DNA of 64,000 bases from a virus. The translations under genes and the position numbers were made by a program. The DNA is taken from positions 41,331 through 105,330 of the IMG/VR virus record IMGVR_UViG_3300044491_002068; one strand, written 5' to 3'. Below are positions 17,049-41,533 of the stretch, in pieces (position 1 is the first letter of the stretch; each line of letters opens with the position of its first letter). The notes beneath the pieces are model-generated. The model worked only from the letters and a program-made list of their open reading frames with translations, did no database searches and was not told where the DNA came from.

Positions 17049-18335
17049 TCAGGACGGCTCAGCGTCAAAGTCAACATAAACGAATGACTCTGGGCGCTTC
17101 ACAGCGAGAGCAAGACGCTCTTCAGCAAGCACCACGATGGCGTTGCGAGTGAAGAAGTCCTCATGATTCTCTGAAATACGGATAGATGCAGCCTCACGGT
17201 CATACAACTGAGCACCGGTACCGAACGCACCAACGAGAGCCTTGCCCTCGGTCATGGCCGGAGTGTCGATGACAGGAATACGCCAGACACGTGACTCAGC
17301 GCCACCAGCAACTGACATGGCAAGCAGGTAAGTACCCTGCGAGTTCTTCGTCAGTTCGATGTCTTCCCAGTCTGACGGGTGGACGATGATGCCGGTCGGC
17401 TCGTAGTAGGCGAGGTACGCCAGAGTAGCCGCACGACGGAGAGCATCCGCCTTTGTGTCAGCAACAGGCGAAGTTGCACCTGTTGACCATGCGTACGTCT
17501 GGATTCCAGACGTAACCGTGATACCAGTAAGGTCCTCGCCGGTACCAGTACCGTTGAGAATCTGAGCATCCTCAGTCAGACGCAGACCGTAAAGCAGTTC
17601 GTTGTCGATGATCGACCGCAACTGCGGCTCATCAGCAAGAACGTTACGGTGAGCGGCTTCCCAGTGAGCGATGGTCCGAACTGGAGCCTGCTCACCCGTG
17701 AAGGTCATTGATGACTGTGGCTTCTGACCGAAGGCGCTACCTGAATACTCAGGAACCACCGAAGCGGCGTTTGTAAAGCCAGTCTGACGGAAGTACTCAA
17801 TGACAGCAGCATTCGTGGTACGTGCCGGGAAAAGGTCACGAACACGGCTACGACGCTGTGCAATTGGGACAATACCGTCACGCTCAACACCACCAAAAGC
17901 AGAAGGTGTGCCTGAAGGAAGACCTGAATAGATGTCCTTCGTGTGAAGTGACTTCGCCTCGAAAGGAGCAGTCATGTTCACGCCAGCCTTACCACCCTGA
18001 AGTGACTTGAACTCGTTTGAGTTGAGGAATGCCTCACCGACTGAACGGCTACGGGCAACTTCACGCTCAACACCTGCAGCAACTTCTGCTGCAACTGACT
18101 TGTACTCGGCCTCTGAGGACCAAGCCGACACGTCACGAAGTGTGGTCATGTCATCAATAAGACCCTTGATTTCACGAATCTGGGTCATGTTATTCTGGAA
18201 TGCTGACTTCTTCTCGTCATCAGCGATGAGGGTTGTGCCCTCAAACTGCATCGAATCAGCGATCTGCTGCTGCTCTGACATCTTCGAAGTCAGAGCGGTC
18301 TTCAGTTCGTTGAGCCGACTCTCATCAAAACTCAT
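17049..18335 (-). CDS. HK97-fold major capsid protein with N-terminal delta domain
   Basis: KP.S...F......V.TIAHW, L.D.PQL.S.I...L.YGL...ED.QILNG.G, F.RN...V.AEERLALAV.RP. Confidence 0.95.
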   Translation of the reverse strand: MSFDESRLNELKTALTSKMSEQQQIADSMQFEGTTLIADDEKKSAFQNNMTQIREIKGLIDDMTTLRDVSAWSSEAEYKSVAAEVAAGVEREVARSRSVGEAFLNSNEFKSLQGGKAGVNMTAPFEAKSLHTKDIYSGLPSGTPSAFGGVERDGIVPIAQRRSRVRDLFPARTTNAAVIEYFRQTGFTNAASVVPEYSGSAFGQKPQSSMTFTGEQAPVRTIAHWEAAHRNVLADEPQLRSIIDNELLYGLRLTEDAQILNGTGTGEDLTGITVTSGIQTYAWSTGATSPVADTKADALRRAATLAYLAYYEPTGIIVHPSDWEDIELTKNSQGTYLLAMSVAGGAESRVWRIPVIDTPAMTEGKALVGAFGTGAQLYDREAASIRISENHEDFFTRNAIVVLAEERLALAVKRPESFVYVDFDAEPS

Positions 18336-18526: not shown

Positions 18527-20041
18527 CTACTTGCGAGTACTGCGAGGATGCTTCTTGGGGAGAAGATCATTGTCCGTAGTGTACTTTGGATTAGCAGGCT
18601 TACCGCTAGACGTTAGTTTCAAGAACGCATTGACACGCCCCATCGCCCACTGTTGCCTATTCATTTTAGGTCTATGCGTCTGAGAGAAAGCCCCTGCACC
18701 ACGGCGCCACACTGCTTTAAGCATCCCTAAAGTCACCTTGCGTTCCTCTTTACCACGCTTAACCATTCGCTCATTATGCTCTGTAACCTTGCCCTTTAGC
18801 GCATTCTCAACAGCATCAGATAGCGCTATGCCCCCACGTGTGCTTGCAGCCGAACCCGGCTTATTCTTATCTGACCCACGTACACGCTCTGAAGGCTTAG
18901 CAGGTGTTTTAGGGTCATTAGGACCATACGCCTTTGCTGATTTCTCTCGCTTCTTCCAAGACTCTGGAATAATATCAAGCCGACCAAGAGCACGAGCACG
19001 CTTCAAAATATGTCGCTTAGCGGCATCAGGGTCCTTCCCTAACCCAAACGCCTGAATCGCATTACGCAAATCCCCAACATCACGAATAGGGTACGACCCA
19101 TCAGGAAGTGCCCATCCACGCTTAGCATACTCGTCTCGGCGGCGGTCCGTATAGACACGCTTCTCTTCTATAGAATCGAACGACTTTGAAGTCCCCTCCA
19201 CCCTAGCAACAATATCCTTAGACCACGTATATCCAGCGTCACCGCCCCACAACGCCCAAGCAATTCGACCATTGGACGGGAAACCTTTCTCACCCGGACG
19301 ATAGCCTTCAGCCTTGGAATCACTTTGGTGCCTATCAAAAAACGCTTTCATACGTTTTACCGTTCGATAAGGAAGGTCTTTGCCATTCTTTATATCACGA
19401 GCACGAGCAATACCTACCATTGTCCCACCACGACCAAACTCTTTACGCCACTTAAGGGCACGCTCTGCCTCATCCACCATACCTGACGTGGGTTTAAAAG
19501 AATCGCTTGCTGCAGCCTTGGCGGAAACTAAACCACCGCCCGGAAGAGTCTCAATGCCACGAGGGCCACGCTCACGCAAATTTTCCCAAGTCTGACTATC
19601 CGTAACAACACGACGGGCGGGGCGAGCGGCACGAATAATACGGGAATTCCTACGGCCACCAGAGTTCCCGTGCGCCGCATTATGTTCCTCTGGAGTCCCA
19701 CACGGAGCCCATACACCTTGACGTGGCTGGTGAGCGCCAACACACCCTAAACGAACAGCAGCCATCTCAGCCTCCGCACGAGTAGAGAACATGGCTTTAT
19801 CCTTAACAGCCTTTAAATTAAAGAACTCTTCAACAACCTTCTTGCCCCGCTGCTTTTTCTTCCACTCCCTAAAAGCAGGATTACCTAATTCAATTAATTT
19901 TTGTAAGTCACGAGAAGACTCGCACGGACCCCAAGCGTCCTCGCTGACACGATGCGCCCCAGAACACCCCAATATTTCAGAAAGTTGCTCAGCAAGTTCC
20001 TTAGTTGGTACGGTCTGTTCTAAAATAGGGTCCTTTGCCAT
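18527..20041 (-). CDS. Modular head-associated protein (2x GCxGxH..PC modules, WALWGGD domain, LPDGSYPI domain, LKAVWRRG..WAMGRVN domain)
   Basis: Modules shared with the 27991 and 29838 ORFs; located just upstream of the MCP. Confidence 0.7.
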   Translation of the reverse strand: MAKDPILEQTVPTKELAEQLSEILGCSGAHRVSEDAWGPCESSRDLQKLIELGNPAFREWKKKQRGKKVVEEFFNLKAVKDKAMFSTRAEAEMAAVRLGCVGAHQPRQGVWAPCGTPEEHNAAHGNSGGRRNSRIIRAARPARRVVTDSQTWENLRERGPRGIETLPGGGLVSAKAAASDSFKPTSGMVDEAERALKWRKEFGRGGTMVGIARARDIKNGKDLPYRTVKRMKAFFDRHQSDSKAEGYRPGEKGFPSNGRIAWALWGGDAGYTWSKDIVARVEGTSKSFDSIEEKRVYTDRRRDEYAKRGWALPDGSYPIRDVGDLRNAIQAFGLGKDPDAAKRHILKRARALGRLDIIPESWKKREKSAKAYGPNDPKTPAKPSERVRGSDKNKPGSAASTRGGIALSDAVENALKGKVTEHNERMVKRGKEERKVTLGMLKAVWRRGAGAFSQTHRPKMNRQQWAMGRVNAFLKLTSSGKPANPKYTTDNDLLPKKHPRSTRK

Positions 20042-20592
20042 TACAACCCTCCAACTACTTTCAAAATTTGAGTAATAGCGGTAGTATCTTTCGTGGTTTC
20101 AGCAGACTTCAACAACGCATAAACTGCTTTAATGTCATCAACATAGGAGTCCGGTATATCGTCAGGGTCAACGTCTGGATTAGTTTCTAAGTCTTCACGT
20201 AAATCTGTGAACGCCTGAATAAGCCTACTTATCTGAGCAAACGAAACCAAGCCCGGATTAGCCGTGGGAAACATAGTGATATATGTTTGCAAATCTGCTT
20301 CAGATAAAGAATCAATATGCTTTTCCATCTTTTCCGACTCAGCATTATACTCTTTAATATCAGTTAACATAGAGTCATACTGATCTTCAGAAATCTCGGA
20401 AGCGTCAGGAAAAAAATGAAGAAGACGCTCGTCAGTGTAAATAGGGACATCGAAATCCCTCAACAACTCAAATTGCTCTACAATCTCTCGTGCCTCGTCT
20501 TCCCAACCACTGCGAGCAGTGAACTCTGCGGTTCTTTCATCAGACAACTTCAAAATAATAGCAGACTTTCCTTTTAGCAGAAAATATTTCAT
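20041..20592 (-). CDS. Hypothetical acidic protein (candidate immunity or partner of the giant protein)
   Basis: Translationally coupled downstream of the kinase-tipped giant ORF. Confidence 0.6.
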   Translation of the reverse strand: MKYFLLKGKSAIILKLSDERTAEFTARSGWEDEAREIVEQFELLRDFDVPIYTDERLLHFFPDASEISEDQYDSMLTDIKEYNAESEKMEKHIDSLSEADLQTYITMFPTANPGLVSFAQISRLIQAFTDLREDLETNPDVDPDDIPDSYVDDIKAVYALLKSAETTKDTTAITQILKVVGGL

Positions 20593-20792
20593 GACTTGTC
20601 CTCACGCATGATGTCCCAATATGAGTATCCGGAACGAACCAACTCTTCGATGGTTTTTGGAGATAGGATGGCAATCTCGCTAAGAAAATGTGCCTGATCT
20701 GCAGGTCGTAAGAAATCGGCTGTCGCTACACCGTCAACAAACGATACTGTTCCCCGCTTTTTGTTGTTTAAGTAAAATGTATATTTTTCCAT
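20589..20792 (-). CDS. Small hypothetical protein (candidate HipS-like antitoxin)
   Basis: 67 aa directly after the kinase domain; N-terminal beta-strand pattern YTFYLN.KKRGTV.F. Confidence 0.5.
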   Translation of the reverse strand: MEKYTFYLNNKKRGTVSFVDGVATADFLRPADQAHFLSEIAILSPKTIEELVRSGYSYWDIMREDKS

Positions 20793-20804
20793 AATAACCC
20801 TACT

Positions 20805-23800
20805 CTACCGTCTCCTGAGAATCATTGCAAGAACATCGTCAGTGCTAGCATTGAGTAACCACTCATAATTTTGATTTACTCTTCCAGCACCAACACTGAA
20901 CGTTGCGGTTGGCTGATGATTATCGAGACCACCTACAACCCCTTGTACATCATCATTGAAACTTCCTAAGTTTCGGTGGTTTTCACGCAAAGTTTCAAGA
21001 GCAGCCTCAACTTCACGGCGAACTCTTTGTCGGGATGCCGCACTGCGTGCTGCAGTTAGTCTAAGACCCGCAAGGAGATTATTTCGGGATGAACTCTCTG
21101 TCACCCATGCACGCATTCTTTCGGCTGGATCGTCCGCTACATTAGCGACACTGCCCCCGAACTTGCCCCCATTGAGACCGAAACCGTTATCAATCGGTAC
21201 AAGCGCCCATGGCGAATTATCGTTTCTCCGAGAAAACAAGAAGTTGTTTCTATGCCTATCAGTGTTTCCAGAAACCATGTCAAGTAGGGTTAAGCGAACA
21301 TGATCCCTAACAGAACCCGTATTAAGAGGAACGTCTACCGCCTGCTCAACCTGACCACCATGGTAGTTCTGAGCCAAATCTACAACAATTGTCGGAGTTT
21401 GTGTTCCCCTATTATTAGCCCGAGCAGCAGGACCGTCAAACCTGATTTGCCCCTGAGCAAAACCGAATCTTTCTCCTAAAGCAGCACCCAACGCCTCATT
21501 ATATGCCTCATCAGGAACAGCACCTCTACCACCGGAATATTTAACTCCAAAGAATTGACCAGTGTCACGATCACGGTATCGGTCCATACCATTAATTCCA
21601 CCACCCTGCGCAATAATCTCAAACCTTTTGTCAGGTCCTCCCGCATTTTGTTCAATTGCATCACGCAAGAACAAGTCAGGAACGTCGGCTAAATTGCCGC
21701 CTCCGGGGGCCATGAACTGCACGGCATCATCTTTAGTGTTTATGTTCTTGTTACCAATCTCAACCTGAGTGGTAATTAGTGCACGATTGTTATTATCTCC
21801 ACGCCCAAGGAACCTACGATAACCCCTTCGAACTGCCTGAACACGCTTAACTACGTTTCTACGAACGGGAGCACCGGGAGCATCGGGAGCATCGGGAGCA
21901 CCGGGGACATCGGGAGCATCGGGAGCACCGACAGGCTTGGGAGCAGACAACCCAGAAATATCAAGTCTTGCATCTCCGAGTGTCTCACCGATGGACAGGA
22001 AAACCCCTTCAGCCGGAGTAATTTGCAAGTCGTTCATTTCTAAATCAGGAATTCCGGCGTCATTCACTTCGGTCTTGAGCACGTCAAAATTTCTACTCGC
22101 CTCCTCGGAACTTAACCCCTTATTCCACGCAGCCCCTTGTATCCAGTTGTAAGCCGGAGTATTTCTACCCTTTGACCCGTCAGCAGAAGTAGGTAGCAAC
22201 CCATTAAGGAAATCAAAATGGCCCGGAACATTATCATAGTCGTCGTTGGCTATACCAACTTTTCCGCTCTCAACCAAAGCACGCAAACGATTACCACTAT
22301 CCTTATCGCCTACTACTAAACGAGCGGAAATCTGGAGTTTGGTGGGCTTGACCCCATTCGCTAAACTCTCGTAGTACTTGTCGTACTCTGTTAGGAGCCG
22401 TTGCGCACCATTATTTATGCCCTGTAAGTTACGAGGCTCTACCGCCCTAAATCCTTGTGCAGCCCATGCCGCTTTTCCTACATCAGCAGGACTAGTCTTA
22501 ACATTATCTATACCGATGCCCCTGTAAAACAGGAAAGCATTACTGTTAAACTCACTAGCAAAGCCTCCACCAACACTGAAGCCAACCATATTTTCGTCAG
22601 GCGCACCTCGTTGTGGGCCAAACCTGCCAGTATTAGGGTCGAAGACGGTCTTAGTCCCCAACGTAGCGTGGTAGACTTCAGTGTCGTCAGTGAAGGACCT
22701 ACTGAAACTATCATTAGGCCAGCCAGATCGTCTCAACTCATTGCCGACTAAAGTTTCGCTACCATCATCATTTAGACGATAAACCTTGAAACGTGATGAT
22801 CCACTAACACGAGAAGGTGCGCCGTCATTGGTAAAACGGATGTCTCCTTCATCTATAACAGGGGTAACAGTCTTTCTATAAGTCACGCCATTAATAGTTT
22901 GTGTACCAGCCGCTACCTCCACATTATGTGAAAACATCTTCTTGACGTACGCACGGCGCTCCTCAAGAGACTTCTTTTTGAAAGCCTCAAGACCAGTCAA
23001 AACTTGTCCGTCAGGCATGGTGTGAGTTACTTCGTATGGTCTATCATCACCATAACGGGCAGCAGCAATCTTATCCATCTGTGCTTGCCGTTGACGAGTT
23101 TTGCGGGCACGCTGACCTTTCCAGTCAAACGAAAGCAACTTCTTAATTCTGCTAGTAGAAGAAGACGAAGCAGGAATACTCTCTACCTGATCCTCCACGC
23201 TAGCAACAACGCCACGCCTGCGCTCCTCTTCTGCCTCTAAATCCCGAATTTGTTGTACAATGCCGCCCTCAAACTCTTCGGGTACGGCAGCAGCCAACGC
23301 CTCAAGATCATTTATCTGTCTAGCAATTGCGGAATCGTCACGATCTTCAATAGGTCGGTCATTTTGATAAACATTGTTAAGCCTTCGCCTCTCCCGCTCA
23401 TCACGAAGTGTTTGCCTGACCTTAAGTAGGTCGTCGTCTACCCCATTGATGCCAACCTGCAAGACATGCTGGTCAAGTGCAACCAACTCACCAACTACGT
23501 CGTCATCGCTCAGATTTTGTATGTCCGACTCGTTCAAAGCCTTAAGACGCTGAACTCTATCAGAAATGTTTTCGTCTGGGTCACCACCGTTCTCCAACAA
23601 ATCTCTGCGACGAGACTCTGCTCTCAACTTATCTATGGCTTGAGCGAGCCTGCGTGGGGGAGGACCGTTCCTATCCCTGCCCCAATTTCTATACTCACTA
23701 TCAAGGCGACCTAAATCACGAGCCAGATCATCGGGAGACATGTTACGAATGTCTGTATCACTCAACGCACGGATTCTTTCAATCTTGTCGTCAACATCCT

Positions 23801-26800
23801 CTACATCGCTAGCCTGCCTGACACTAGACTTAGGGTCATTATTGATAACCCTTTTTACGCTAGCACCATCCAAATTGCGTGCATTTGCAATAGCGTCACG
23901 ACGGTTAGGAGAAAGTCTCATCAAATGATCGCTAGCAGCCGCCTGAATTTCTTCATCAGAATTAGCGACCTCAACTTTACGAGAAAACTCGTTCAACTCT
24001 AAGAAGTCGTTAAGCCTGCGTTGCCACAGCCTACCCCTATCTGGCGCTGACTCACTATCGTCAACAAGGAGTTCTCTAATACGCCTACGCATATCGCTCA
24101 CACTGAAGTCGTTTGGATTAGAAACACCCAACTCTGTAGCCCACTGCTGTGCCAATTCGTCAAACTCGTTAAGAGCCTGATTTACGACATTTATTTGCTC
24201 ATCCCCAGTAAGCATATCAAAACGGTCTTCATCTTCTACTTGAGCGTGTCTACCATTCCAGAAGTCTCTTAACATATCGACATCAACAGGTATACGAGCA
24301 TCGGGAGAGACAGGACCATTGCGTTCTTCCCGCTCAGCCTTAAGTCGCTCTAATAGTTCCTTCTCTTCATCATCCAAATCTTTAATATTGTCCAAAGCAC
24401 GAATGAAGCGAGACAAATCATTATCATCAAGATTGTTGACGAAATCTCCAGTCATACCACCCTGCCGCAAATCGAAATCTTGCTGGCGCTCTTGCAATTC
24501 GTCTAACACATCTAGCGCTTCCTGATCTGGATCAGGAGAGACACTATCCGGAACAATATCTACACCATCAGCAGGGCCCCTATTGTCACGCTCAGCACGC
24601 AACTTATTGAGAATCTCTTGACCCTCTGTCCCCAGAATATCGTTGTCTAAGCCTTCTATAACATTGATGTACTTATCTAACTCATCATCATTCAAATTCT
24701 GAATAAAGTCACCGGTCATGCCGCCCTGTCGCATATCAAAGTCTTGCGCACGCTCCTGAAATTCGTCAAGCCCACGTAACCCTCGCTCCGTCCGAAGCCG
24801 CTGCAAAAGTTCTTGTTCCTCTTTGTCAGGATCAGGAATCTGCTCTAACGCATTAACAAACCTATCAAGATCGTTATCTTTCAGATTTTCAACAAAGTCA
24901 CCGGTCTTGCCGCCCCGACGCACGTCAAAGTCTTCCTGCATCTTCTGCATCTCGTCTAGAACCGCAAGGTAATCTTCATCTCCTGCATCACCCGGAACAC
25001 GAGGACGCTCGCCCGGAACGTCCATATCATTACCTAAATCAAGGTTTTCACTAAGATTACGGCGACGAATTTCATCCTCAATCATCTGGCTACGTGCAGC
25101 ACGGGTAGTATCGCCATCAAATCGTGGCGCCTCACGAGACCTTAGCAATTCTTCATCCGACATGTTTCGGATTTCTTTAGCCATACGACGCCTATCCTCG
25201 TCGCTCGTCGCCTCTCCCGGAACACGACGCCGCCCGCCCGGAACAAAGGGACGCCCGTCACCTTCATCACGAGGACGCCCGCCCGGAACACGAGGACGAC
25301 CGTCTCCGTCATCACGAGGACGCCCACCCGGAACACGAGGACGACCACCCGGAACATTGGCATCGCCATCCCCCGGACGACGATCACGACCACGCCGATT
25401 ACCCTGCATGGCATCACCAAGGCGCTCCAGCAATTCACCAAGTTTCTCAATACCAGCCAAGATAGCGTCAACAATTCGTGCACCAATATTACGACCGTCC
25501 TGATCCCTAGGAGGGTTATCAGTCATTCGACCAGCCTCAATATTAGCAGCCTTCTCCAAACGCTGAAAAGCATTGCGGATATCAGAAATATCGGCGTCGG
25601 CAAAATCATCACCGTTTACAACATCACGTAAATTCTCAAGAGCATCAGCAAACTCTTCGCCATTTAGAAGATTTTTTTCCTCGTCAGTTAAATCAGCATC
25701 GGAAACCTGCTCCCCTAGCGTCCTTCCAAGCCTACCCGGACGCCTATCTTCAGTCTTATCAAAAACATCAGACAATTTGCCCATAGTATCATCTAGGCGA
25801 GTTGTTGCTTCAGACAACTTGGACTTGGTATCAGGAGTTAAACGGCTCCCACCATCTCCGGGCTTTACATCCCGACGACGCTTGCGCCTATCCATAGCGT
25901 CTTCAATAGTTACACCTAAATCAACCAGACCATTAATTACACGCCTATTCAAAGAATAGCCACAATTGCGACCAAACTTGTCACTAATACGACCACCATA
26001 CCTAGTGCCCGGAGGGCAGCGATACCTGCTGATGTTTGTGTCAAAGATAGCACGAGTACGCCCACTAGTGATAACCTTAGGCTTCTTACGGGCTTTAAAG
26101 TCGTAATTAGCCTGATCTACAGATTGTACAAAAATATTTGTACGGGCCTCAATACTCTTTTTGTAATTCAAGTTATGAACATTTACAAATGTATCAGTCT
26201 TAGTAGAAACAAAGAAAGGATTCAATGACTTTGCTTCACCGGAAATCTCGTATACTGGAGCGTCCTTTGCACGTCGTGGTGCAGAGCGAGACAGGAACGT
26301 TTCATACACCCAGCGAGGAACTGTCAACATTTTCCCACCAGCCGCAACAACCTGAATCAACTCATTGTCAGCCTTTACCGGCTTGTAACTGTTATTAGTT
26401 ACACGACCAAATGAAACTTCAAACCTTCCTGAAGAATTAGTAACATACTCGTAAATAGCGGCAGAAGGATCAGGCAGATCAGCGGCCCGCCGAATAGAAG
26501 TTGGGAAAACTCTGCGTAAACTATCAATTTCTTCAGGTGACAACTCGCCACCAACTCGGCTAATCTTTAATGCACCAATTTCAGGGAACCCAATATAAAC
26601 ATCACGAAGTCCAGTAGAAAGCGCAGGGAAAGCCTCCCTACCAATCTGGCCAGAAGTGTAAACATCAATTAAAGAACCGTCAACAAGGTCATCAAACTCG
26701 TCAAGTTTCCCTAGAGCAGCAACAGAAACAACCGGCTCAAGAATAACTCCATCACGTCGCACTGTCCTAGCGGAAAAATCACTCTCAGCAATACGAGAAA

Positions 26801-27809
26801 GAACTAAATCTACAGAAGTCTCTCGTCTAGTGGGACTACCCTTCTTTGGAGCAACAGGAATCTGAGCAGCACGAATTATATCGTAAGCGCTCCTATTCTG
26901 ACGAAGATCACCAATCTCCCGCACCAACGTAGCATTCCTCGCTAACTGGGCCAAAGCACGCTGTGCACCAGCGGAAGGAGAACCGGGACCAATTTTAGGG
27001 ATACCTAAAATCTGAGCACCGCAAGTGCTGAACTGAGAATTGGTAAACGTGCCGCCCTTTTCAAAACCCGGAGGACAACGGTACTGATTACGTGCCCCAC
27101 GCCCAGCACCACTCAACAGACGACGACCCATACCACGAGCGCTTGGAAGACCACGCCCACCCCCCGGAGTCAGCGTCTCATAAATCTGTGATCGCACAGG
27201 ACTACGCACATCAGACAAGTCACCCGGAGCAAGCATAGTACCAACAGCCTGAATACCCTGAGCGGTACCCGAACTGCTACCAAATATTCCTACTCTCTTC
27301 TCCTCAAGACCGTCAGACATGGGTACACGCATGGAAGACGTGGCAAATAAAGCGGCCTTAAGATCGACAGCATTTTGTCTACCTGCAATGGGTTGAACTA
27401 AAACCCCATTGAAATCACGAGACTGCCGAACAACTAACCTAAACGCAGAGACATCAGTTATTTCCTGTGGAACGTATGCTGACTTCGCCCTGCGTGCACC
27501 AGTACGTACACTTCTGCGGACACTTCTACGCTTCCCGCCACGGCGACCATGGTGATTTCCTTCGTTTGGCCACTTCCCTGTAATCTCATGGTGAAGCCAT
27601 GCGCAAATACGCTGAGGCTTGCCACCAAACTGGGGCTTGTCCATTAGTGTTATAACGCAGCGTCGAAAGCCCCCCGGCTTCTTCATTATTGGACGCCAGT
27701 ACTTTATCAGTTTCTCTAGATTACCACGACGAGGACCACGCCCACGGAGAACTTCACCAGTAATTGCTTCCTGTGGAACACCCACTACTTCTTTAACGTC
27801 AATCGTCAT
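20805..27809 (-). CDS. Giant polyvalent head/internal protein with GNAT-like and C-terminal HipA/PI3-4K-like kinase domains
   Basis: Kinase motifs GVKY..E..NEALGA.L, NTDRHRNNFL and LVPIDNG; GNAT-like GGGFASEF...YR..G......DVGKAAWAAQGF; internal repeats. Likely start MTIDVKEV at 27809. Confidence 0.7.
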   Translation of the reverse strand: MTIDVKEVVGVPQEAITGEVLRGRGPRRGNLEKLIKYWRPIMKKPGGFRRCVITLMDKPQFGGKPQRICAWLHHEITGKWPNEGNHHGRRGGKRRSVRRSVRTGARRAKSAYVPQEITDVSAFRLVVRQSRDFNGVLVQPIAGRQNAVDLKAALFATSSMRVPMSDGLEEKRVGIFGSSSGTAQGIQAVGTMLAPGDLSDVRSPVRSQIYETLTPGGGRGLPSARGMGRRLLSGAGRGARNQYRCPPGFEKGGTFTNSQFSTCGAQILGIPKIGPGSPSAGAQRALAQLARNATLVREIGDLRQNRSAYDIIRAAQIPVAPKKGSPTRRETSVDLVLSRIAESDFSARTVRRDGVILEPVVSVAALGKLDEFDDLVDGSLIDVYTSGQIGREAFPALSTGLRDVYIGFPEIGALKISRVGGELSPEEIDSLRRVFPTSIRRAADLPDPSAAIYEYVTNSSGRFEVSFGRVTNNSYKPVKADNELIQVVAAGGKMLTVPRWVYETFLSRSAPRRAKDAPVYEISGEAKSLNPFFVSTKTDTFVNVHNLNYKKSIEARTNIFVQSVDQANYDFKARKKPKVITSGRTRAIFDTNISRYRCPPGTRYGGRISDKFGRNCGYSLNRRVINGLVDLGVTIEDAMDRRKRRRDVKPGDGGSRLTPDTKSKLSEATTRLDDTMGKLSDVFDKTEDRRPGRLGRTLGEQVSDADLTDEEKNLLNGEEFADALENLRDVVNGDDFADADISDIRNAFQRLEKAANIEAGRMTDNPPRDQDGRNIGARIVDAILAGIEKLGELLERLGDAMQGNRRGRDRRPGDGDANVPGGRPRVPGGRPRDDGDGRPRVPGGRPRDEGDGRPFVPGGRRRVPGEATSDEDRRRMAKEIRNMSDEELLRSREAPRFDGDTTRAARSQMIEDEIRRRNLSENLDLGNDMDVPGERPRVPGDAGDEDYLAVLDEMQKMQEDFDVRRGGKTGDFVENLKDNDLDRFVNALEQIPDPDKEEQELLQRLRTERGLRGLDEFQERAQDFDMRQGGMTGDFIQNLNDDELDKYINVIEGLDNDILGTEGQEILNKLRAERDNRGPADGVDIVPDSVSPDPDQEALDVLDELQERQQDFDLRQGGMTGDFVNNLDDNDLSRFIRALDNIKDLDDEEKELLERLKAEREERNGPVSPDARIPVDVDMLRDFWNGRHAQVEDEDRFDMLTGDEQINVVNQALNEFDELAQQWATELGVSNPNDFSVSDMRRRIRELLVDDSESAPDRGRLWQRRLNDFLELNEFSRKVEVANSDEEIQAAASDHLMRLSPNRRDAIANARNLDGASVKRVINNDPKSSVRQASDVEDVDDKIERIRALSDTDIRNMSPDDLARDLGRLDSEYRNWGRDRNGPPPRRLAQAIDKLRAESRRRDLLENGGDPDENISDRVQRLKALNESDIQNLSDDDVVGELVALDQHVLQVGINGVDDDLLKVRQTLRDERERRRLNNVYQNDRPIEDRDDSAIARQINDLEALAAAVPEEFEGGIVQQIRDLEAEEERRRGVVASVEDQVESIPASSSSTSRIKKLLSFDWKGQRARKTRQRQAQMDKIAAARYGDDRPYEVTHTMPDGQVLTGLEAFKKKSLEERRAYVKKMFSHNVEVAAGTQTINGVTYRKTVTPVIDEGDIRFTNDGAPSRVSGSSRFKVYRLNDDGSETLVGNELRRSGWPNDSFSRSFTDDTEVYHATLGTKTVFDPNTGRFGPQRGAPDENMVGFSVGGGFASEFNSNAFLFYRGIGIDNVKTSPADVGKAAWAAQGFRAVEPRNLQGINNGAQRLLTEYDKYYESLANGVKPTKLQISARLVVGDKDSGNRLRALVESGKVGIANDDYDNVPGHFDFLNGLLPTSADGSKGRNTPAYNWIQGAAWNKGLSSEEASRNFDVLKTEVNDAGIPDLEMNDLQITPAEGVFLSIGETLGDARLDISGLSAPKPVGAPDAPDVPGAPDAPDAPGAPVRRNVVKRVQAVRRGYRRFLGRGDNNNRALITTQVEIGNKNINTKDDAVQFMAPGGGNLADVPDLFLRDAIEQNAGGPDKRFEIIAQGGGINGMDRYRDRDTGQFFGVKYSGGRGAVPDEAYNEALGAALGERFGFAQGQIRFDGPAARANNRGTQTPTIVVDLAQNYHGGQVEQAVDVPLNTGSVRDHVRLTLLDMVSGNTDRHRNNFLFSRRNDNSPWALVPIDNGFGLNGGKFGGSVANVADDPAERMRAWVTESSSRNNLLAGLRLTAARSAASRQRVRREVEAALETLRENHRNLGSFNDDVQGVVGGLDNHQPTATFSVGAGRVNQNYEWLLNASTDDVLAMILRRR

Positions 27810-27978
27810 TAGAGTCCCCGTCATTCTTAAGCGGCTCAAAGACGTGAATTAAGCCGTCCTCATCTACATATTCTACAGGCTTTTTGTGTGCCGTGCTACC
27901 AAGAAACGCAGTCGCTCCAATATTTAGCAACGCTTCGTTTGCTAATATGACTCTTTTCGCAACGGATGATGGAGTCAT
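27799..27978 (-). CDS. Small hypothetical protein (59 aa)
   Basis: Below the track cutoff; GGAGG SD; MTPSSVAKRVILANEALLNIGA...DSNDD*; stop overlaps the giant gene start. Confidence 0.65.
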   Translation of the reverse strand: MTPSSVAKRVILANEALLNIGATAFLGSTAHKKPVEYVDEDGLIHVFEPLKNDGDSNDD

Positions 27979-27990
27979 TTAAGCCTCCGC

Positions 27991-29805
27991 TCAGGAAAGC
28001 CCTTCCTCCATCAAACTCTGGAATTCTTGAAGGGCGTTTACAATATCAGCGTCAAGTGACTTCTCTTCGTCGCCTGATTCCTGCCCAGAGTCCATCGACC
28101 AGTCTTCTGGGATCATGTCTTCAAGGCCAAGTTCTTTTGCTCGCTTAGTAATATGAGCCTTTGCGGCTTCAACGTCGCTTGCACGCCCATGTGCTTGAAT
28201 TGCATTCTGCAAATCGGCTTCATCAGCAATAGGGAATGAACCGTCAGGCATTGCTTCACCAGACTCTGACATCGACTCACGCTGTTCACGTGAATACATT
28301 CGCTTAATCTGAAGTTCAGCCTCTAATGCCTTAATCTCGTCCTCTTCGGTCATTTCGTACTTAACTTCGTCAATGAGGTCATATTCGTCATAGCCAAGAA
28401 CCTTGCCCTCAACGGAGATGAAGAAGTCGTAACTCTTTTCGCTAGCCTCAACCTCAACAACATATACGTCCTCATCAGCGAAAACGTCAACCATAACACC
28501 CATGACTTCTCCCTTTGCCTCAACATCCATATATGCGAATGCTGTGACAGCGGCCTGCTCTGCGTCAGATTTAGAAATGATGTTAATCTGCTCAAGCGAC
28601 TTGCCCTCAAGCGCATTCTCATCAATCTTCAACCAACCCAGTTCCTGACCATCACCGGAAAGGAAAACTTCAATACAGGAGCCATCAGCACGCTTAACAT
28701 CAACAACGAACATGTCGTCAGCAACTGAATAGCCCGAACCCACAACCTCAGAGCCTTCATAGGCACTCTTAACTTGCGATTCAATATCACCCAATCCGGG
28801 GAGACCATCTTCGGGTGAGCAGCCACCGTGGCAGAATTCGCAAGGCTGATTAACCGACTTGCGTTGGAATCCGCACAAGAAGTCCTCTTCAGACTTCATA
28901 CCGCCTGCAGCAGCAGGAGCAGCAGGAGCAGTAGGAGCAGCGGGAGCAGGAGCAGCGTCTGGAGTCTCGTCAACATCGCTCTTAGCCAAATCAAGCCACT
29001 CTTCATGCGTGGCGCATGGCATGAACTTAACGCCAGCACGGTGCACACCCTCGCAACCTAGAACTGCGGCACGCTCAATCGCTTCTGCCTCAGTGTCAAA
29101 CATGTCCACATTTGATTCGCCATCTTCAGCCTTTTCGCCATTATCGGCCATCTTGCGCATGGCAACAACTTCCATTGGGCTACGGCGACGGTAACTCATA
29201 CCGTAGCCCTTCCCTGTACCCTCTTCGTAAACCGCAACTTCCTCGAATGCGGACTTAGCGTCTTCATCTAGACCGTCGTAATCTTCTGATGAAATAAGTT
29301 CGCCTTCTTCCATCATTTCCTTAAAACGAGTGTCAGTTAGGAACATAGAGGGCTTATCAACGGTGGCCGGATTCATCATAGACATGATCTTAGCGGCCTT
29401 TTCACTTACAACAGAGTTGTCCACCGACTTCTCTTCTGCATCTTCCTCGCCAGAAACTTCATCAGCGGTTTCTTCTACCTCTGCGTCGCCAGAAACGTCT
29501 GCCTCAGCATCCTCTTCCTCAGAATCATCTTCTGCCTTGAAACGGAACATCCAGCCCATTGGCTCCTTAGTTTCCTCATTCATGACATTGATCATCTCGT
29601 ATCCTTTTTGATCTTCTTCATCAAGAACGGAAAATGCGGCCTCGTCTAAGAGTTCACCAGCATCGACAGACTCCTTGAATCGAATGTCAGTCATGAATAC
29701 AGAAGGTGCGCCCTTCTCGTCCACATTAGCACTCTTTTCCTCAGAAGAAAGCAGAGCATCCATATCCTCAAACTTCTTAAGATCGTCATTCATGTTTTCA
29801 CTCAT
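27991..29805 (-). CDS. Acidic modular head protein (internal repeat, GCxGxH..PC module, PepSY-like repeats, MPDGSFPI domain)
   Basis: P.(V/M)F.TD.RFKE repeat x2; modules shared with neighbours; AGGAG SD before ATG 29805. Confidence 0.65.
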   Translation of the reverse strand: MSENMNDDLKKFEDMDALLSSEEKSANVDEKGAPSVFMTDIRFKESVDAGELLDEAAFSVLDEEDQKGYEMINVMNEETKEPMGWMFRFKAEDDSEEEDAEADVSGDAEVEETADEVSGEEDAEEKSVDNSVVSEKAAKIMSMMNPATVDKPSMFLTDTRFKEMMEEGELISSEDYDGLDEDAKSAFEEVAVYEEGTGKGYGMSYRRRSPMEVVAMRKMADNGEKAEDGESNVDMFDTEAEAIERAAVLGCEGVHRAGVKFMPCATHEEWLDLAKSDVDETPDAAPAPAAPTAPAAPAAAGGMKSEEDFLCGFQRKSVNQPCEFCHGGCSPEDGLPGLGDIESQVKSAYEGSEVVGSGYSVADDMFVVDVKRADGSCIEVFLSGDGQELGWLKIDENALEGKSLEQINIISKSDAEQAAVTAFAYMDVEAKGEVMGVMVDVFADEDVYVVEVEASEKSYDFFISVEGKVLGYDEYDLIDEVKYEMTEEDEIKALEAELQIKRMYSREQRESMSESGEAMPDGSFPIADEADLQNAIQAHGRASDVEAAKAHITKRAKELGLEDMIPEDWSMDSGQESGDEEKSLDADIVNALQEFQSLMEEGLS

Positions 29806-29837
29806 TTTTTGAACTCCTAAATCCTTCAAAGAGTATA

Positions 29838-31433
29838 CTACTCAACACCGTTATCGGTGTCAAGGTCTGTGTTCTGGGTAATAGAAATCTGAGGATCGAA
29901 CTCAAGGTTGGCTAAAGCGCTAGCGACCTTAATCATCAGTTCCTCGTGATTCATCTTAGTGGAAAAGTGTAGATCGACACCATCAATTGTTTTGAAGGCA
30001 AAAACCGGCACATCCACCATAGCCTTGCTGACATCAAACGCATGGCTATCAGCACACTTGACATGTACGATAAAGCCAGACGTGATCTTCTCATTCTGCT
30101 CGGCAGGAAGAGACATTGGTGCTGAAGTCAAGAACTTCTCAACTTCGTCAATAAGACCTAGAGTCGCCTCACGTAATTCGCCAGCGCCACGAAGTTTAAG
30201 CATCTCGTTGTATGCCATAAGTAGCAGAGTCATTGGGTCCTTCAAGTGATCTTTGTCCCCATACGAGCGGCGCTGATCATCGTCATAGTCGCCACCCTTT
30301 ACGCTATCGCATGAGCAGCCACTCTTGGACTCTTCAACACTAACCCCTGCTAGGTAGTTATTATGTGAGTTGATGTTTGCGTTACCGTCAAACTTTTCCA
30401 CAGCCTCCAAGTACTCGGCATGTGTTTCACACGGCAGGAAACCACCTCCGTGCGAGTGCCAACCGGAGCAACCGAAAGTCTTTGACCACGCCAGAGCGAT
30501 ATCAGGAGTAGCCCAAGTACCCTCTTCATTATTACCGTCACGGATACCTTCAGGCTCATCGGCGTCTTTGGCCTCTGGCTCTTTAACCATCATTGCGGGA
30601 GGAGCACCCTCTCCTACTGGAGCGTAAGTCATAGTAGGCTTAACACGAGTTGGCTTACCTAACGCTATCTGATCTCCTTCTGTGGAAAATGTCGCCATCC
30701 ACACCATGTCCTCACCGGTCTGGAAAATAACGTTGTTGTCTTCAATGTTTAAAATCTGTACAGGCTTATTCAACGCACGAGATATCAAGCGTCCCATCAT
30801 GGACGACATGGCATCTACGTCGTTTGACGCCCCGCCCTTATAATCATTCATTGTGATTGTGACTTCCTTTGCTTGTGCATTTTTCTCGTCATCTTTTACA
30901 GAAATGGTGCCGGTCAACTGATTGGCCCCGTGCAGCACTGGTGAAATTTCATAAAGTTCAACTTCTTTGAGAATGTTAGCCTGCTTAACTGCATCAAAGT
31001 CAGCGTCTAAAGTCTTGTAACCAATAGACCACTCTTGGTCATGCCCGTAGAAAGCAACATTAGCAAAAGCCTCACGGCCACGCTCTGTGTTCAAATTGAA
31101 CTGAACCTTGGCAAATAGCCCACCTACTCCTGCCTGCTTCATCTTATCAGGAAGCCGGGGGTCAGTCTTGGGTACTTCATAGATTTCAATAACTTTACCG
31201 ATTGGTTGATTCCAGTCGTGACCCCATACAACTCTAGGCTTGCGACGCTTTAAGGAACCAGAAAATGCGCCGGAGATAACAATATCCCCAACTGAGTCTT
31301 TATTACCGATGCCTGATACGAACGCTTCTACGATTCCTTGCGCTTTATCAATCCCGATTTGGCCTGAAATAGCCTTAAAATCAAAAGCCTCGTCGGTTTC
31401 TGATGCTTGATTTTGTGAAACTAGAGTAGTCAT
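29838..31433 (-). CDS. HK97-family prohead protease with C-terminal extension
   Basis: DSVGDIV..GAF, WGHD..QPIG, WSIGY, LYEISPV..GAN; AAGGAG SD before ATG 31433. Confidence 0.9.
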   Translation of the reverse strand: MTTLVSQNQASETDEAFDFKAISGQIGIDKAQGIVEAFVSGIGNKDSVGDIVISGAFSGSLKRRKPRVVWGHDWNQPIGKVIEIYEVPKTDPRLPDKMKQAGVGGLFAKVQFNLNTERGREAFANVAFYGHDQEWSIGYKTLDADFDAVKQANILKEVELYEISPVLHGANQLTGTISVKDDEKNAQAKEVTITMNDYKGGASNDVDAMSSMMGRLISRALNKPVQILNIEDNNVIFQTGEDMVWMATFSTEGDQIALGKPTRVKPTMTYAPVGEGAPPAMMVKEPEAKDADEPEGIRDGNNEEGTWATPDIALAWSKTFGCSGWHSHGGGFLPCETHAEYLEAVEKFDGNANINSHNNYLAGVSVEESKSGCSCDSVKGGDYDDDQRRSYGDKDHLKDPMTLLLMAYNEMLKLRGAGELREATLGLIDEVEKFLTSAPMSLPAEQNEKITSGFIVHVKCADSHAFDVSKAMVDVPVFAFKTIDGVDLHFSTKMNHEELMIKVASALANLEFDPQISITQNTDLDTDNGVE

Positions 31434-31531
31434 GACTCTCCTTAAGTACCATTGCAACATTCATATGATACACCCCTCCAGTAGATGATGATGAAGTGTT
31501 TATATAAACATGCTATTTTCTTTTTATATAA

Positions 31532-32290
31532 TTATACGCCGAACTTTAATACACACCTACAGTTTATAGTCAGCGGCGGCGGAGCAAGAGGGTCTTTAGG
31601 GAACCTGATAGCCACACCGTCCACGAAAAATGCGGAACCTACAGGTACTTTATCCCCGTGTAACTTGCGATGATCGGTCCGAACACGCTCATCACGAAGC
31701 GACACCCACTGCTTATAAACACTTAAACCGTCCCTTGACTCCTTTACGGAATCCTGTAAGCCCTGATTGTACGGACCTAATACAGCAGAATCAATAATTA
31801 AAGGCTTACGCTTTGATCGCAGTTTATTGAAAACACTTTTAACTAAAGAATAGGCTAAAGCGACTTTGAGAGCAATGTCAACATCTCTGCCATCTTCGTC
31901 AGTAAGTGCTGCTGCGACACCAAGTGCTGCAATAACTTGATCACGAGTCGTGGAATTGAAAGAGTTAACTACAGATGCCTGATTTGCTAATGCAGCGGAT
32001 CGCTCTTCACCACTTACCTGTCGTCCATAACCCTCGGTGATATTGTCAGAAATGGCCTTGTCATAAACTGCGCCCATTGCCTCAACTAGTTGGTTTGTCT
32101 GAAGAGACAGCATATACACAGAAAGGATTCCCGCTACAGCGCCAGCGCCAAAAAGGGCCTTACCTTCGTCGCTATTCAATCTATCTAAAACTAATTGCTC
32201 TTGTGTATCAAAAATTTCCTCTAAAGCCGAAGACACTTCGTCTTCCATCGAATCTACACGATAAAGTGTTTTCTCTTCCCAAGTAGGCAA
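31532..32290 (-). CDS. MuF / SPP1 gp7-like minor head protein (probably translated as a portal fusion)
   Basis: KQW....DERVR..H..LHG......F......RFP.DP......INCRC; no SD at the TTG, and the frame stays open back to a slippery site at 32341. Confidence 0.88.
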   Translation of the reverse strand: MPTWEEKTLYRVDSMEDEVSSALEEIFDTQEQLVLDRLNSDEGKALFGAGAVAGILSVYMLSLQTNQLVEAMGAVYDKAISDNITEGYGRQVSGEERSAALANQASVVNSFNSTTRDQVIAALGVAAALTDEDGRDVDIALKVALAYSLVKSVFNKLRSKRKPLIIDSAVLGPYNQGLQDSVKESRDGLSVYKQWVSLRDERVRTDHRKLHGDKVPVGSAFFVDGVAIRFPKDPLAPPPLTINCRCVLKFGV

Positions 32291-32316: not shown

Positions 32317-33780
32317 CTAAGGAGATTGATTTTGTAAAGGGCGGCTCTGCTCACCCTCCGCTTCACTTAACTCACTAGGTACTTGAGCGGCGCTAGCCTC
32401 AATCCGCTGTGTCCCTTGAACCGTCCCCGTGGGAACAAATGCCCCTTGTTCCGGACTAAATTCTGTGACCTGCTGTTGCTGTGCTTCTGAAGCCTGCACG
32501 TCTAAGGGAACGCCTCCCTGAACGTCTGCCCCCTCATTCATTGGCTTTTCTGTGTTGGCAATTGGTGTCTGGTTGGGGTTAGACAACAACGAGTCAGCAA
32601 TGTCTGAAACAACTTTCTTTCTTCCAGACGCCTCTCGGTACTCATTGGTGCTAATGAGACCCTGCTGGTATTCTGTCAAATAGTGACGCTCACGCTCCTG
32701 TTTTGCAAGAACAAGGATGGGGACGTTTGACGTATCGAAATCAATGAAGTAGGTGTCATCAAGTCTATCAAATGAACGAGCAATCAAATCCAAGTGGGGT
32801 GACATCGTTTCCATCCAGAACACCTTGCCCTCTTCCATGGCGTTAGAGAATGTTCTATTTGAGGAGTTACCAATAATCGACTCTGGTACACCAAATGCCG
32901 CTAGAATCTCCTCTTTTGTAACAGTACGCATTTGAATATATGCCGCATCCCGTGGGCTGGCAGCAGTATCAACGAAGTCGGCACCATCGTCAGATGAAAT
33001 CACGCCTACCGAACCAACACGTCCAATATTCCCACGAAACCTTGAGCGCAACTCCTCTTTATCCTCGTCAGCAATCTCGCTACGAAGGACAAGGAGACCA
33101 CCCGGACGGCCATCGTTAATCAAAAAGTTTCGGTTATAAATTTTTGCTAAGTTCTCTAATTCAATAGCAACGCCTGCAGCCTCCATTGGGGTCATGGATA
33201 GGTACGGGTCTAATGGGTGTGGGCGTCTAATCCAAATAACATTCTTAGGTGGGATAGTGCGCTTTTCCATTGCGCTTATCTTTACCTCAAACCCTTTAAC
33301 AAAGTTGTTCACATCGGGAATAGGGGAGGTATTCTGAGGAGGAAGTAGGTGCAAAGCAATTGGTACACCACTACGTCCACGAACAATTTCGACAAAAGCA
33401 CCCCGGCTGCTCATTAACAACTGAGAAGATAGTCGATAGCGGAAAGCGAAAGCGTTTTCCCCAGCATTCGCTGTGTTATTGAATAGACGTAGTAATGAGT
33501 GGTCGTCTACAATTTCACCAAATGGATTATTGTCTTTTCTGAATATCATGGGTAGACGTGCTTGGTTGGAAGCAATAACGTCTATAGCCCGGAAAACCCA
33601 TGTTACTTTAGCCACACCTTCACGGTATGCTTTAACAATATCCCAACCGTCATGGTACCCTTCGTTTCTTCCCTGAATTGAAGGACTGTACGAAATGGGT
33701 GCACCGACTGAGACGGGAGCCGCTTTCTGACCAGTTACAATATTTTCAAGAGATTTACTAGACGTATTGTTCCAAGCCAT
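32317..33780 (-). CDS. HK97-family portal protein
   Basis: WVFRAIDVIA...A.LP, N.F.NDGRPGG.L, EI.AAFGVP..IIG.....TF.N motifs. Confidence 0.93.
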   Translation of the reverse strand: MAWNNTSSKSLENIVTGQKAAPVSVGAPISYSPSIQGRNEGYHDGWDIVKAYREGVAKVTWVFRAIDVIASNQARLPMIFRKDNNPFGEIVDDHSLLRLFNNTANAGENAFAFRYRLSSQLLMSSRGAFVEIVRGRSGVPIALHLLPPQNTSPIPDVNNFVKGFEVKISAMEKRTIPPKNVIWIRRPHPLDPYLSMTPMEAAGVAIELENLAKIYNRNFLINDGRPGGLLVLRSEIADEDKEELRSRFRGNIGRVGSVGVISSDDGADFVDTAASPRDAAYIQMRTVTKEEILAAFGVPESIIGNSSNRTFSNAMEEGKVFWMETMSPHLDLIARSFDRLDDTYFIDFDTSNVPILVLAKQERERHYLTEYQQGLISTNEYREASGRKKVVSDIADSLLSNPNQTPIANTEKPMNEGADVQGGVPLDVQASEAQQQQVTEFSPEQGAFVPTGTVQGTQRIEASAAQVPSELSEAEGEQSRPLQNQSP

Positions 33781-41155: not shown

Positions 41156-41533
41156 CTATCCACTGACCAGTAGGTCAAGAGCGATTTGTAGACGCTTAAC
41201 CTCAGCGTCCCAATCAACTTTAACTCCGGGTACTCCAATCTCCAAAAGATGATCTAAAGCCTCTCGGCCTAACTCATCCTCTAACCAACGTGCCCACACT
41301 AAAGGGTTTTTAGACTGCTTCCAATGGCACGAAGCGCATAAGGCTACAGCATTGTTTTCGTCTGTCCTCGTGGCAGAAATACTTCTAGACAGAATGTGGG
41401 CACACTGAATTTGCTTTCCGTCATCTTTTGTTGCACCACACCATCTGCAAGTAAAGTTGTCTCTAGTCCTTACATACAGGCTATGAAGTTTAGTGGCCTT
41501 CGCTTTAGCCTGCTTACCATAACTAGCAGACAT
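41156..41533 (-). CDS. NinG/Rap-like HNH-fold nuclease
   Basis: S.YVR.RD..C..CG, QCAH..SR....TR.DE.N...LC..CH. Confidence 0.75.
   Translation of the reverse strand: MSASYGKQAKAKATKLHSLYVRTRDNFTCRWCGATKDDGKQIQCAHILSRSISATRTDENNAVALCASCHWKQSKNPLVWARWLEDELGREALDHLLEIGVPGVKVDWDAEVKRLQIALDLLVSG

Follow-up and report, generated by a model that had tools for sequence, protein, structure and literature searches.

Several enzymes that are packaged in the phage capsid and injected into the host have been described, namely the T4 Alt ADP-ribosyltransferase, the internal proteins, the N4 virion RNA polymerase and the MuF-toxin fusions. Proteins injected with the phage DNA act at the start of infection, and few of them are known beyond the model phages. 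We know of no dedicated gene in the Alt, N4 or MuF systems whose product binds the active site of the enzyme. Polymorphic toxin/immunity cassettes form arrays in which a constant N-terminal tag is combined with an enzyme and a small open reading frame (ORF). In the present work a stretch of 64,000 nucleotides (nt) of viral DNA, called the window (IMG/VR record IMGVR_UViG_3300044491_002068, positions 41,331 to 105,330), was analysed for a giant gene of 2,334 amino acids (aa) lying at 20805..27809 between the genes of the prohead protease and the major capsid protein, and for the two small genes of 67 aa and 183 aa which follow it. The features of the giant gene and the genes of the head operon given below are all on the minus strand. 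The giant gene probably codes for a capsid-loaded, injected effector having its own inhibitor.

For the polyvalent proteins, capsid packaging and injection were inferred by Iyer, Burroughs, Anand, de Souza and Aravind (J Bacteriol 2017, PMC5512222). Among the domains that this paper lists as part of polyvalent proteins or as their neighbours are kinase, GNAT and NUDIX domains; it mentions T4 Alt and N4-like RNA polymerase fusions in passing and alludes to polymorphic-toxin cassette arrays. The giant protein is like this class in being one very long polypeptide of several enzyme domains encoded beside portal, terminase and head genes, with domains swapped between relatives: a kinase, a second folded domain and a front module were found in it, its neighbours are head genes, and its domain content varies. 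The kinase class of the same paper is of the Ser/Thr/Tyr type, has lost the whole C-terminal subdomain and occurs mainly in (pro)phages of Verrucomicrobia-Chlamydia and Bacteroidetes, whereas the kinase here is PI3/4K/CotH-like with a long helical C-lobe. Its 800-residue Cys-knuckle front, fusion to the protease, RCPPG tag and small partner also had no counterpart in a term search of PMC5512222.

The giant would resemble T4 Alt, the N4 RNA polymerase and the MuF toxins as a late-made enzyme proposed to enter the head and to reach the host along with the DNA, acting from the beginning of the next infection, its gene lying among head genes. It is not homologous to them. The MuF-like minor head protein of the window is coded by a separate 252-aa gene (31532..32290; PF04233, above the Pfam cut-off) and the giant has no MuF match, so the MuF linkage drawn on by the initial annotation does not hold. 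With the polymorphic toxins the locus shares the tandem arrays of tag, enzyme and small ORF seen in its split relatives, and it differs from them in lying in a phage head module, in having nearly always one kinase family as the enzyme and in lacking a secretion system.

The explanation preferred here is that the giant protein is polyvalent cargo of the capsid interior in an uncultured contractile-tailed phage, a fused string of cargo units with the kinase as main payload. Placement inside the prohead would be the task of the basic Cys-knuckle front module (residues 11-804). The acidic repeat spacer comes next, and the payload would be the last 800 residues, made of a GNAT-like domain of uncertain activity and an atypical kinase. 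Loading would take place while the head is assembled, and the protein would later leave the capsid together with the DNA; in the newly infected host the kinase may phosphorylate targets in the service of takeover or counter-defence. In the cell that makes the virions, the acidic 183-aa protein would hold the 67-aa protein, which would fill the catalytic cleft and keep the kinase silent until unfolding at ejection strips it off. We infer packaging, ejection and inhibition, as well as the nature of the substrates, and the explanation as a whole, which depends in part on a modelled complex, is judged to have an about even chance of being right. The polyvalent-effector part is supported by the architecture and the antidote part is partly supported for the 67-aa protein. 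If true, three things would be gained, namely a sequence tag by which cargo is directed into capsids, a new class of phage kinases and a natural protein inhibitor of these kinases, and the recurring giant genes between protease and capsid genes would be explained.

Constant front module and exchangeable back half

The giant gene is an uninterrupted ORF which extends over 20805..27839 when read from a TTG at 27839. Homologues align from Met11, and the true start was therefore taken as the ATG at 27809; residue numbers follow the TTG-start translation (P0001). A frameshifted or chimeric ORF was ruled out by homologues of the same length. The conserved front module (25428..27809), 45-65% identical in 64 giant homologues, has an isoelectric point (pI) of 9.9 and carries three motifs. 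Sub-module A (27525..27722) is a Cys2-His2 motif (RRCV ... ICAWLHHE ... WPNEGNHH) matching phrog_6439, and it is followed by a conserved basic Arg/Ser stretch and by two invariant RCPPG..GG..CG knuckles, the first at 27018..27080 with Cys255 and Cys273 and the second at 25959..26021 with Cys608 and Cys626. All six Cys of the giant (61, 79, 255, 273, 608 and 626) fall inside these motifs and, along with H83/H84, are invariant in 17 homologues of 44-65% identity, which is far from chance. Searches with the front module gave no match in Pfam, NCBIfam or PDB sequences and no usable match in the ESM Atlas; the PHROGs gave only phrog_6439, a family of unknown function.

The spacer (residues 805-1559; 23163..25427) is variable, acidic (pI 4.5), helical and free of Cys. 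A motif search revealed three DFD.R.GG.TGDF units and PRVPGG repeats in it, and self-BLAST listed no repeats. In front of the kinase there is a Pro/Ala linker of the APDAP type. The initial annotation had described an ORF of about 2330 aa between the protease and capsid genes, with N-terminal Cys/His modules and a repeat-rich spacer, and these results are in accordance with it.

Using two peptide patterns from the front module, 449 relatives were recovered from IMG/VR, and the gene order was read in 80 fetched loci, whose ORFs were called by a simple longest-ORF script. The order from portal to capsid is conserved in these 80 loci. The front module thus occurs in 449 loci of uncultured aquatic phages, in which at least 7 kb of the head operon is given to the candidate. 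A database search gave 64 giant homologues of 1,400-3,900 aa, nearly all of which share residues ~11-800 at 41-63% identity, a few distant ones having 30-34% identity over a shorter span. The later parts of the giants differ. About half carry the GNAT-like and kinase end at ~30% identity, and other giants carry other domains on the same front module: NUDIX at residues 1266-1371 of one homologue (P0042), sigma-70 region 4, a helix-turn-helix (HTH) and a poly(A)-polymerase-type RNA-binding domain in another of 3,742 aa (P0051), and a LigT/2H phosphoesterase placed ahead of the front module in a third (P0061). The variability of the C-terminal domain among relatives, which had been put forward as a check, was thereby found.

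Sigma-70 region 4 and HTH_3, with some poly(A)-polymerase/CCA-type domains, are carried by most of the giants P0048-P0055 (1,830-3,905 aa; loci L025 and L026 among them), P0054 having no Pfam hit on record. By analogy these sister giants suggest virion-delivered transcription factors, with a logic reminiscent of the N4 virion RNA polymerase. The NUDIX-type giants have an internal, apparently intact kinase, and three other small genes take the place of the 67-aa and 183-aa pair. In five loci (L002, L005, L006, L011 and L045) this internal kinase lies at about residues 1500-1850 with D-N-H-G-x-N and FDAG motifs, and in some of them it was missed by Pfam and by the first profile scan. On the tree of the front module, the GNAT-kinase-67-183 and NUDIX architectures are interleaved, the window standing beside a NUDIX clade and L011 beside L017/L019. 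Because of this interleaving, the back half and its small genes appear to have been exchanged together.

When a narrower kinase alignment was used for scanning, a further 24 loci were fetched, their ORFs being called by the same script; viral contigs searched with the kinase as a single protein gave no match. In these 24 loci the giant is broken up into separate proteins. Sub-module A is found inside a genuine S78 protease in L095 and L097 (L095:1232-3334), with YWRPIM...CAWLHHE at protease residues 346-427; residues ~140-520 form a separate protein of 572 aa; and two to four separate cargo proteins each begin with the second RCPPG region (~545-657), the majority of them having a kinase at the other end (L083-L106). 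Two to three kinase proteins are present per head module in these loci (e.g. L098:430-12803), most beginning with RCPPG and most then followed by an ORF of ~100 aa, an arrangement that reads as tandem tag-kinase-partner cassettes. The fusion to the protease and the RCPPG heads tie the front end to the prohead interior.

A wider proposal is put forward tentatively, as one that we would sooner expect to fail than to hold. The RCPPG tag and the Cys2His2 module might mark proteins for capsid loading in a cargo system of phage heads, in which the main cargo would be a family of atypical kinases peculiar to it, each member having its own plug of ~70-120 residues. The units of such a system, widespread in uncultured aquatic phages, would stand as tandem tag-kinase-plug cassettes or be fused into one giant of 2,000-3,900 residues, and the whole could be a virion-delivered analogue of the polymorphic toxin/immunity arrays.

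The C-terminal kinase and its predicted small partners

The Pro/Ala linker and the kinase occupy 20808..21962, the domain being folded from about residue 2010. Residues given by their position in the kinase segment are converted to the P0001 numbering by adding 1959. The catalytic residues K2100, E2111/E2115, D2194-R-H, N2199 and D2217 are all present, the catalytic loop NTDRHRNN lying at 21243..21266. In an alignment of 43 homologues, D235, R236, N240 and D258 of the segment are invariant and K141, E152, E156 and H237 are nearly so. The initial annotation had read an intact kinase from K, E, NTDRHRNN and DNG, and this was confirmed, with the loop within 2 nt of the position first given.

The sequence of the C-terminal 385 residues was matched weakly by Pfam, PI3_PI4_kinase giving E 3.6e-4 (21.0 bits against a gathering score of 27.1) and HipA_C E 0.18 (11.9 bits against a cut-off of 30.5). 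Only 94 kinase relatives, borne on proteins of 190-3,500 aa, turned up when 1.8 billion representatives were searched exhaustively. Among the 43 homologues, PF00454 was matched by 28 (E<=0.01, best 4.8e-8), HipA_2 by 6, Fam20C by 5 and CotH by 2. When kinase copies of split loci were tested against PF00454, one passed (31.5 bits) and one met the cut-off (27.1 bits). The phmmer and profile searches of PDB sequences were empty for the kinase, the GNAT-like segment and the front module, and so was the NCBIfam scan of the giant and the small genes.

The AlphaFold model of the kinase has a predicted local distance difference test (pLDDT) score of 84 and a predicted template modelling (pTM) score of 0.84, and it revealed a bilobal fold with a long helical C-lobe. 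Foldseek matches of this model were weak (E about 4e-4) and consistently to PI3K, PI4KII, actin-fragmin kinase, HipT and CtkA. In the VIA alignments the Z score was 14.3 for CotH (root-mean-square deviation (rmsd) 4.3, 248 residues aligned), 13.4-13.7 for PI4KII (13.7 for PI4KII-alpha), 12.8 for CtkA, 12.3 for Vps34, about 12 for Vps34/PI4KIII-beta, 11.9 for HipT and 11.0 for HipA. CotH, PI4KII and CtkA are thus alike to the modelled domain at Z 12.8-14.3 over about 240-250 residues (rmsd 4.1-4.5), with the D-R-H-x-x-N loop and a metal-binding Asp as in PF00454; the domain differs from them in its sequence identity of only 9-14%, in its phage head operon and in its fusion to a giant. As modelled, the C-terminal domain is an atypical kinase of the PI3/4K-CotH-HipA superfamily that looks catalytically intact, for which the earlier term HipA-like is too narrow: CotH and PI4KII reach Z 13.7-14.3 against 11.0-11.9 for HipT and HipA. 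No HipA_N or Couple_hipA match was obtained in the giant or the 67-aa protein at E<=0.1 in Pfam, nor any in NCBIfam, and the GAQxK loop was not found by motif search of the giant. A lipid substrate in bacteria seems to us unlikely. This payload family has no characterised member and apparently has a dedicated small partner.

The 67-aa gene (P0002; 20589..20792) starts 12 nt past the stop of the giant and overlaps the 183-aa gene (P0003; 20041..20592) by ATGA; the 183-aa gene overlaps the next one by TAATG. On the other side, the ATG of the giant overlaps the stop of a 59-aa ORF by 11 nt. From these overlaps and the short gap, the genes were taken as one translationally coupled block. Iterated profiles revealed homologues of the 67-aa protein in 16 loci and of the 183-aa protein in 17, both families at 20-36% identity, and tblastn also gave a 183-aa-like match in L026. 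The two ORFs are therefore conserved coupled genes, as had been supposed; the likeness of the 67-aa protein to HipS, supposed along with it, found no sequence support in the Pfam and NCBIfam searches. In all 16 loci with a 67-aa homologue a kinase-bearing ORF lies upstream, either the giant itself or, in the split lineage, a separate kinase protein of 857-1,020 aa that comes after a giant of 1,600 aa. Loci of the split type (L029-L042) have an extra ORF of 71-83 aa, a family of its own, between the kinase gene and the 67-aa homologue. The 183-aa family is found also after the kinase-less sigma-type giant in L025 and L026, there behind an unrelated ORF of 53-55 aa, and for this reason the 183-aa gene is not kinase-specific.

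The complex was predicted from three chains, the kinase, the 183-aa protein and the 67-aa protein as the scored partner, with alignments of our own. The interaction prediction scores from aligned errors (ipSAE) were 0.63, 0.28 and 0.75 (median 0.63), against 0.00 for two unrelated partners and 0.36 when the kinase was replaced by an unrelated protein. The mark used was reached by 58 of 80 solved complexes and by 2 of 110 mismatched pairs, a calibration which holds only roughly for such three-chain runs. The runs agreed in at least 71% of contacts, and the partner had a pLDDT of at least 78. Kinase residues 141, 152, 235, 237-240 and 257-258 are among the predicted contacts. In the best run, residues 28-39 and 52-63 of the 67-aa protein contact the Gly-rich strand (118-126), K141, E152, D235, H237-N240 and D258 of the kinase, and its SGYSYW segment occupies the catalytic cleft; its residues 28-37 pack on helix 40-59 of the 183-aa protein. 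The model thus supports binding of the 67-aa protein to the kinase active site, and the 183-aa protein is predicted to bind the 67-aa protein through helix 40-59.

The 24 further viral loci provided a second line of evidence. Of their 50 kinase ORFs with downstream sequence, 45 are directly followed by a same-strand ORF of 60-135 aa, compared with 10 of 50 other ORFs of at least 300 aa. Two thirds of these small ORFs (30 of 45) form one family having an [ST]G[FYM]SY motif in common with the 67-aa protein. A kinase with a small protein downstream is, as judged from gene order and sequence, a conserved pairing of the system. The families of the 67-aa and 183-aa proteins were also compared by hhalign with the 150/112/117-aa genes of the NUDIX type and with families of 80-92 aa and 96-103 aa, all at probabilities below 2%; one match of 26% joined the 183-aa family to an ORF of 107 aa. 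The initial annotation had proposed that the cassette carries its own antitoxin. For the 67-aa protein the link to the kinase is upheld by the predicted complex and the gene pairing; the 183-aa gene, as said, is not specific to the kinase.

Proposed roles as injected effector or assembly enzyme

A number of observations weigh against an injected kinase silenced by the 67-aa protein. One of the three complex runs scored only 0.28. The Ser and Tyr of SGYSY are not invariant, as they are not kept in L017/L019 and in homologues of the split type. Between the 67-aa family and the ~100-aa partner families the link is weak, given by one phmmer edge (E 6.6e-4) and an hhalign probability of 9.9% (P 0.003), and the aligned part is exactly the SG[FY]SY segment. 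The NUDIX-type giants have a kinase and lack the 67/183 pair, so that not every kinase requires a partner like the 67-aa protein. As the kinase is found in the majority of lineages, though not in all, its role may be a core one for the phage and not that of a variable weapon. The inheritance of the kinase together with the adjacent 67-aa and 183-aa genes could reflect physical linkage alone. No cultured relative carries the gene, and a lytic phage does not obviously need an antidote.

The main rival explanation is a morphogenetic kinase which, like CotH of the Bacillus spore coat, would phosphorylate head-interior proteins of the phage itself and so drive or time the assembly of the head or the packaging of DNA. 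The targets would be the Ser/Arg-rich front module or the 612-aa and 504-aa head proteins, and the 67-aa protein would be a regulator or a substrate. CotH is the top structural match, though within 1 Z of PI4KII, and Z differences below 1 do not favour it. The basic Arg/Ser stretch after sub-module A resembles the tails of kinase substrates. A kinase is present in most lineages, frequently as two or three copies per locus, as would be expected of a core function in assembly, and its near-universality is in favour of this rival. The paralogous kinases, each with its own small partner, look however more like effector/partner cassettes than like one assembly enzyme, and the NUDIX, sigma/HTH and LigT payloads of the sister giants have no obvious role in assembly. 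Because of these tandem diversified cassettes and alternative payloads, delivery of an effector is favoured, and a morphogenetic kinase is considered unlikely.

An equally unlikely alternative concerns the small proteins, in which the 67-aa protein would be a substrate, an activator or a loading chaperone rather than an inhibitor and might itself be packaged with the kinase, and the 183-aa protein a general chaperone for basic head cargo. A SGYSY segment at the catalytic loop fits a substrate as well as a plug, and structure prediction cannot tell substrate, inhibitor and chaperone roles apart. The 183-aa homologue found after the kinase-less giant with an unrelated 53-55-aa ORF suggests a general adaptor with a cargo-specific small protein, and the pI of 4.3 of the 183-aa protein, against 9-10 for the front module and the kinase, would suit such an adaptor. 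An obligate phospho-acceptor would hardly be expected to lack conserved Ser/Tyr positions, as is the case in L017/L019 and in homologues of the split type.

It is less likely still that the giant is not packaged at all and is either a late multi-enzyme protein of the cytoplasm or a scaffold or core component removed before packaging, its operon position reflecting timing only. Very large proteins are costly to fit in a capsid, and related actinophages have in the same position a 'capsid maturation protease' of 1,633 aa that undergoes processing and is not delivered. Opposed to this, the front-end modules are fused to a prohead protease and shared with other head-interior proteins, and the architecture matches the phage class of polyvalent proteins inferred to be capsid-packaged (PMC5512222).

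The idea that the kinase is a HipA/HipT-type toxin acting on an aminoacyl-tRNA synthetase, and that a HipS-like antitoxin supplying the missing N-subdomain is to be seen in the 67-aa protein, is very improbable, since the shared superfamily (HipT and HipA among the structural matches at Z 11-12, weak HipA_2 or HipA_C matches in 7 of 43 homologues) and a small adjacent protein predicted to bind the kinase are outweighed by the higher score of PI3_PI4_kinase in the query and 28 of 43 relatives, by the higher Z of CotH, PI4KII, CtkA and Vps34, by the lack of HipA features, N-subdomains or HipB, and by a partner that is unrelated in sequence and encoded downstream, in a virion module and not in a toxin-antitoxin operon of a chromosome. 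The contact of this partner is predicted in the catalytic cleft.

GNAT-like domain, head operon and viral setting

Between the spacer and the kinase, residues 1560-1960 (21960..23162) form a well-folded domain, with a pLDDT of 89.6 in its model. The modelled fold has a long beta-sheet, then a helix-strand-helix core and then a helical bundle. A conserved GGG loop before a helix and DG..W..GFR after it, at about 22440-22700, have the layout of GNAT motifs A/B. No GNAT profile of Pfam matched even at E<=10, PF00583 gave no match in the whole viral record, the family profile of the domain found no GNAT among PDB sequences, and Foldseek of the model against PDB gave nothing below 1e-3. In an exhaustive VIA structural search the best Z was 5.4, below the usual noise level, about 20 of the 50 best rows being GNAT/histone acetyltransferase (HAT) enzymes at Z 4.2-5.0 (NatD, p300, HAT1, PatZ, RimI and MccE). 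In BFVD, which holds predicted viral structures, the domain matched uncharacterised phage proteins of 700-960 aa at E 1e-7 to 9e-4, and three actinophage 'acetyltransferases' weakly at E 0.008-0.075; the ESM Atlas gave weak leads only, all below 0.9. The domain is therefore described as weakly GNAT-like on its model, its identity as GNAT being unproven: the GNAT-like segment of the initial annotation stands as the core of a well-folded domain, and neither a GNAT profile nor a significant fold match was obtained for it.

The minus-strand order of the head operon is portal, MuF, S78 protease, 612-aa gene, 59-aa ORF, giant, 67-aa gene, 183-aa gene, 504-aa gene and HK97-type capsid gene, so that three further head-module genes (612 aa, 59 aa and 504 aa) lie with the giant and its small genes between protease and capsid. 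The large terminase gene lies upstream of the head module and is divergent. The portal protein (PF04860) is at 32317..33780, the prohead protease (Peptidase_S78), with a long C-terminal extension carrying DUF3721, at 29838..31460, and the major capsid protein (Phage_capsid, HK97 fold) at 17049..18335. The 612-aa protein (27991..29829) is acidic with a DUF3721 Cys/His motif, and the 504-aa protein (18527..20041) is basic with two DUF3721 motifs and DUF5824. The conserved 59-aa ORF (27799..27978) is just 5' of the giant, and an ORF of 56-64 aa is present at its position in most of the closer related loci. The GCxGxH...PC motif (Pfam DUF3721) is common to the protease tail and the 612-aa and 504-aa proteins, with four copies in total, and the last two also share a DGS[FY]PI...AI motif. 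By their sequences, the protease tail and these two proteins would seem to be paralogues that make up a set in the head interior.

The IMG/VR contig to which the window belongs is viral, linear and 105 kb long, with a CheckV completeness of ~71%. Among 50,697 cultured-phage records, megablast gave no nucleotide relative of the region and tblastn no relative of the front module or the kinase. Contractile-tailed actinophages such as the Gordonia phages DalanDe and GMA6 and the Brevibacterium phage Cantare have capsid and portal proteins with 43-48% identity to the present ones, a weak hint about the host from protein likeness. In the search for a host the front module was found only in metagenome-assembled genomes (MAGs) of five unrelated phyla (L108-L114: Phycisphaerae, Gammaproteobacteria, Verrucomicrobiales, Microbacteriaceae and Bacteroidia); in all likelihood viral contigs had been binned with them, and for this reason they give no guide to the host. 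Mycobacterium was ruled out as host by the G+C content, which is 44-50% over the DNA and about 46-48% in the comparison with this genus, and by the lack of a close cultured relative.

Among the nearest cultured relatives of the capsid protein, phage DalanDe (L082, ON755184.1 22424-27325) has its 1,633-aa 'capsid maturation protease' gene directly upstream of the capsid gene, a non-homologous giant in the same position. In the window the capsid gene is followed by a 241-aa ORF of no known function, beyond which a class II (B12-dependent) ribonucleotide reductase gene lies at 14145-16094.

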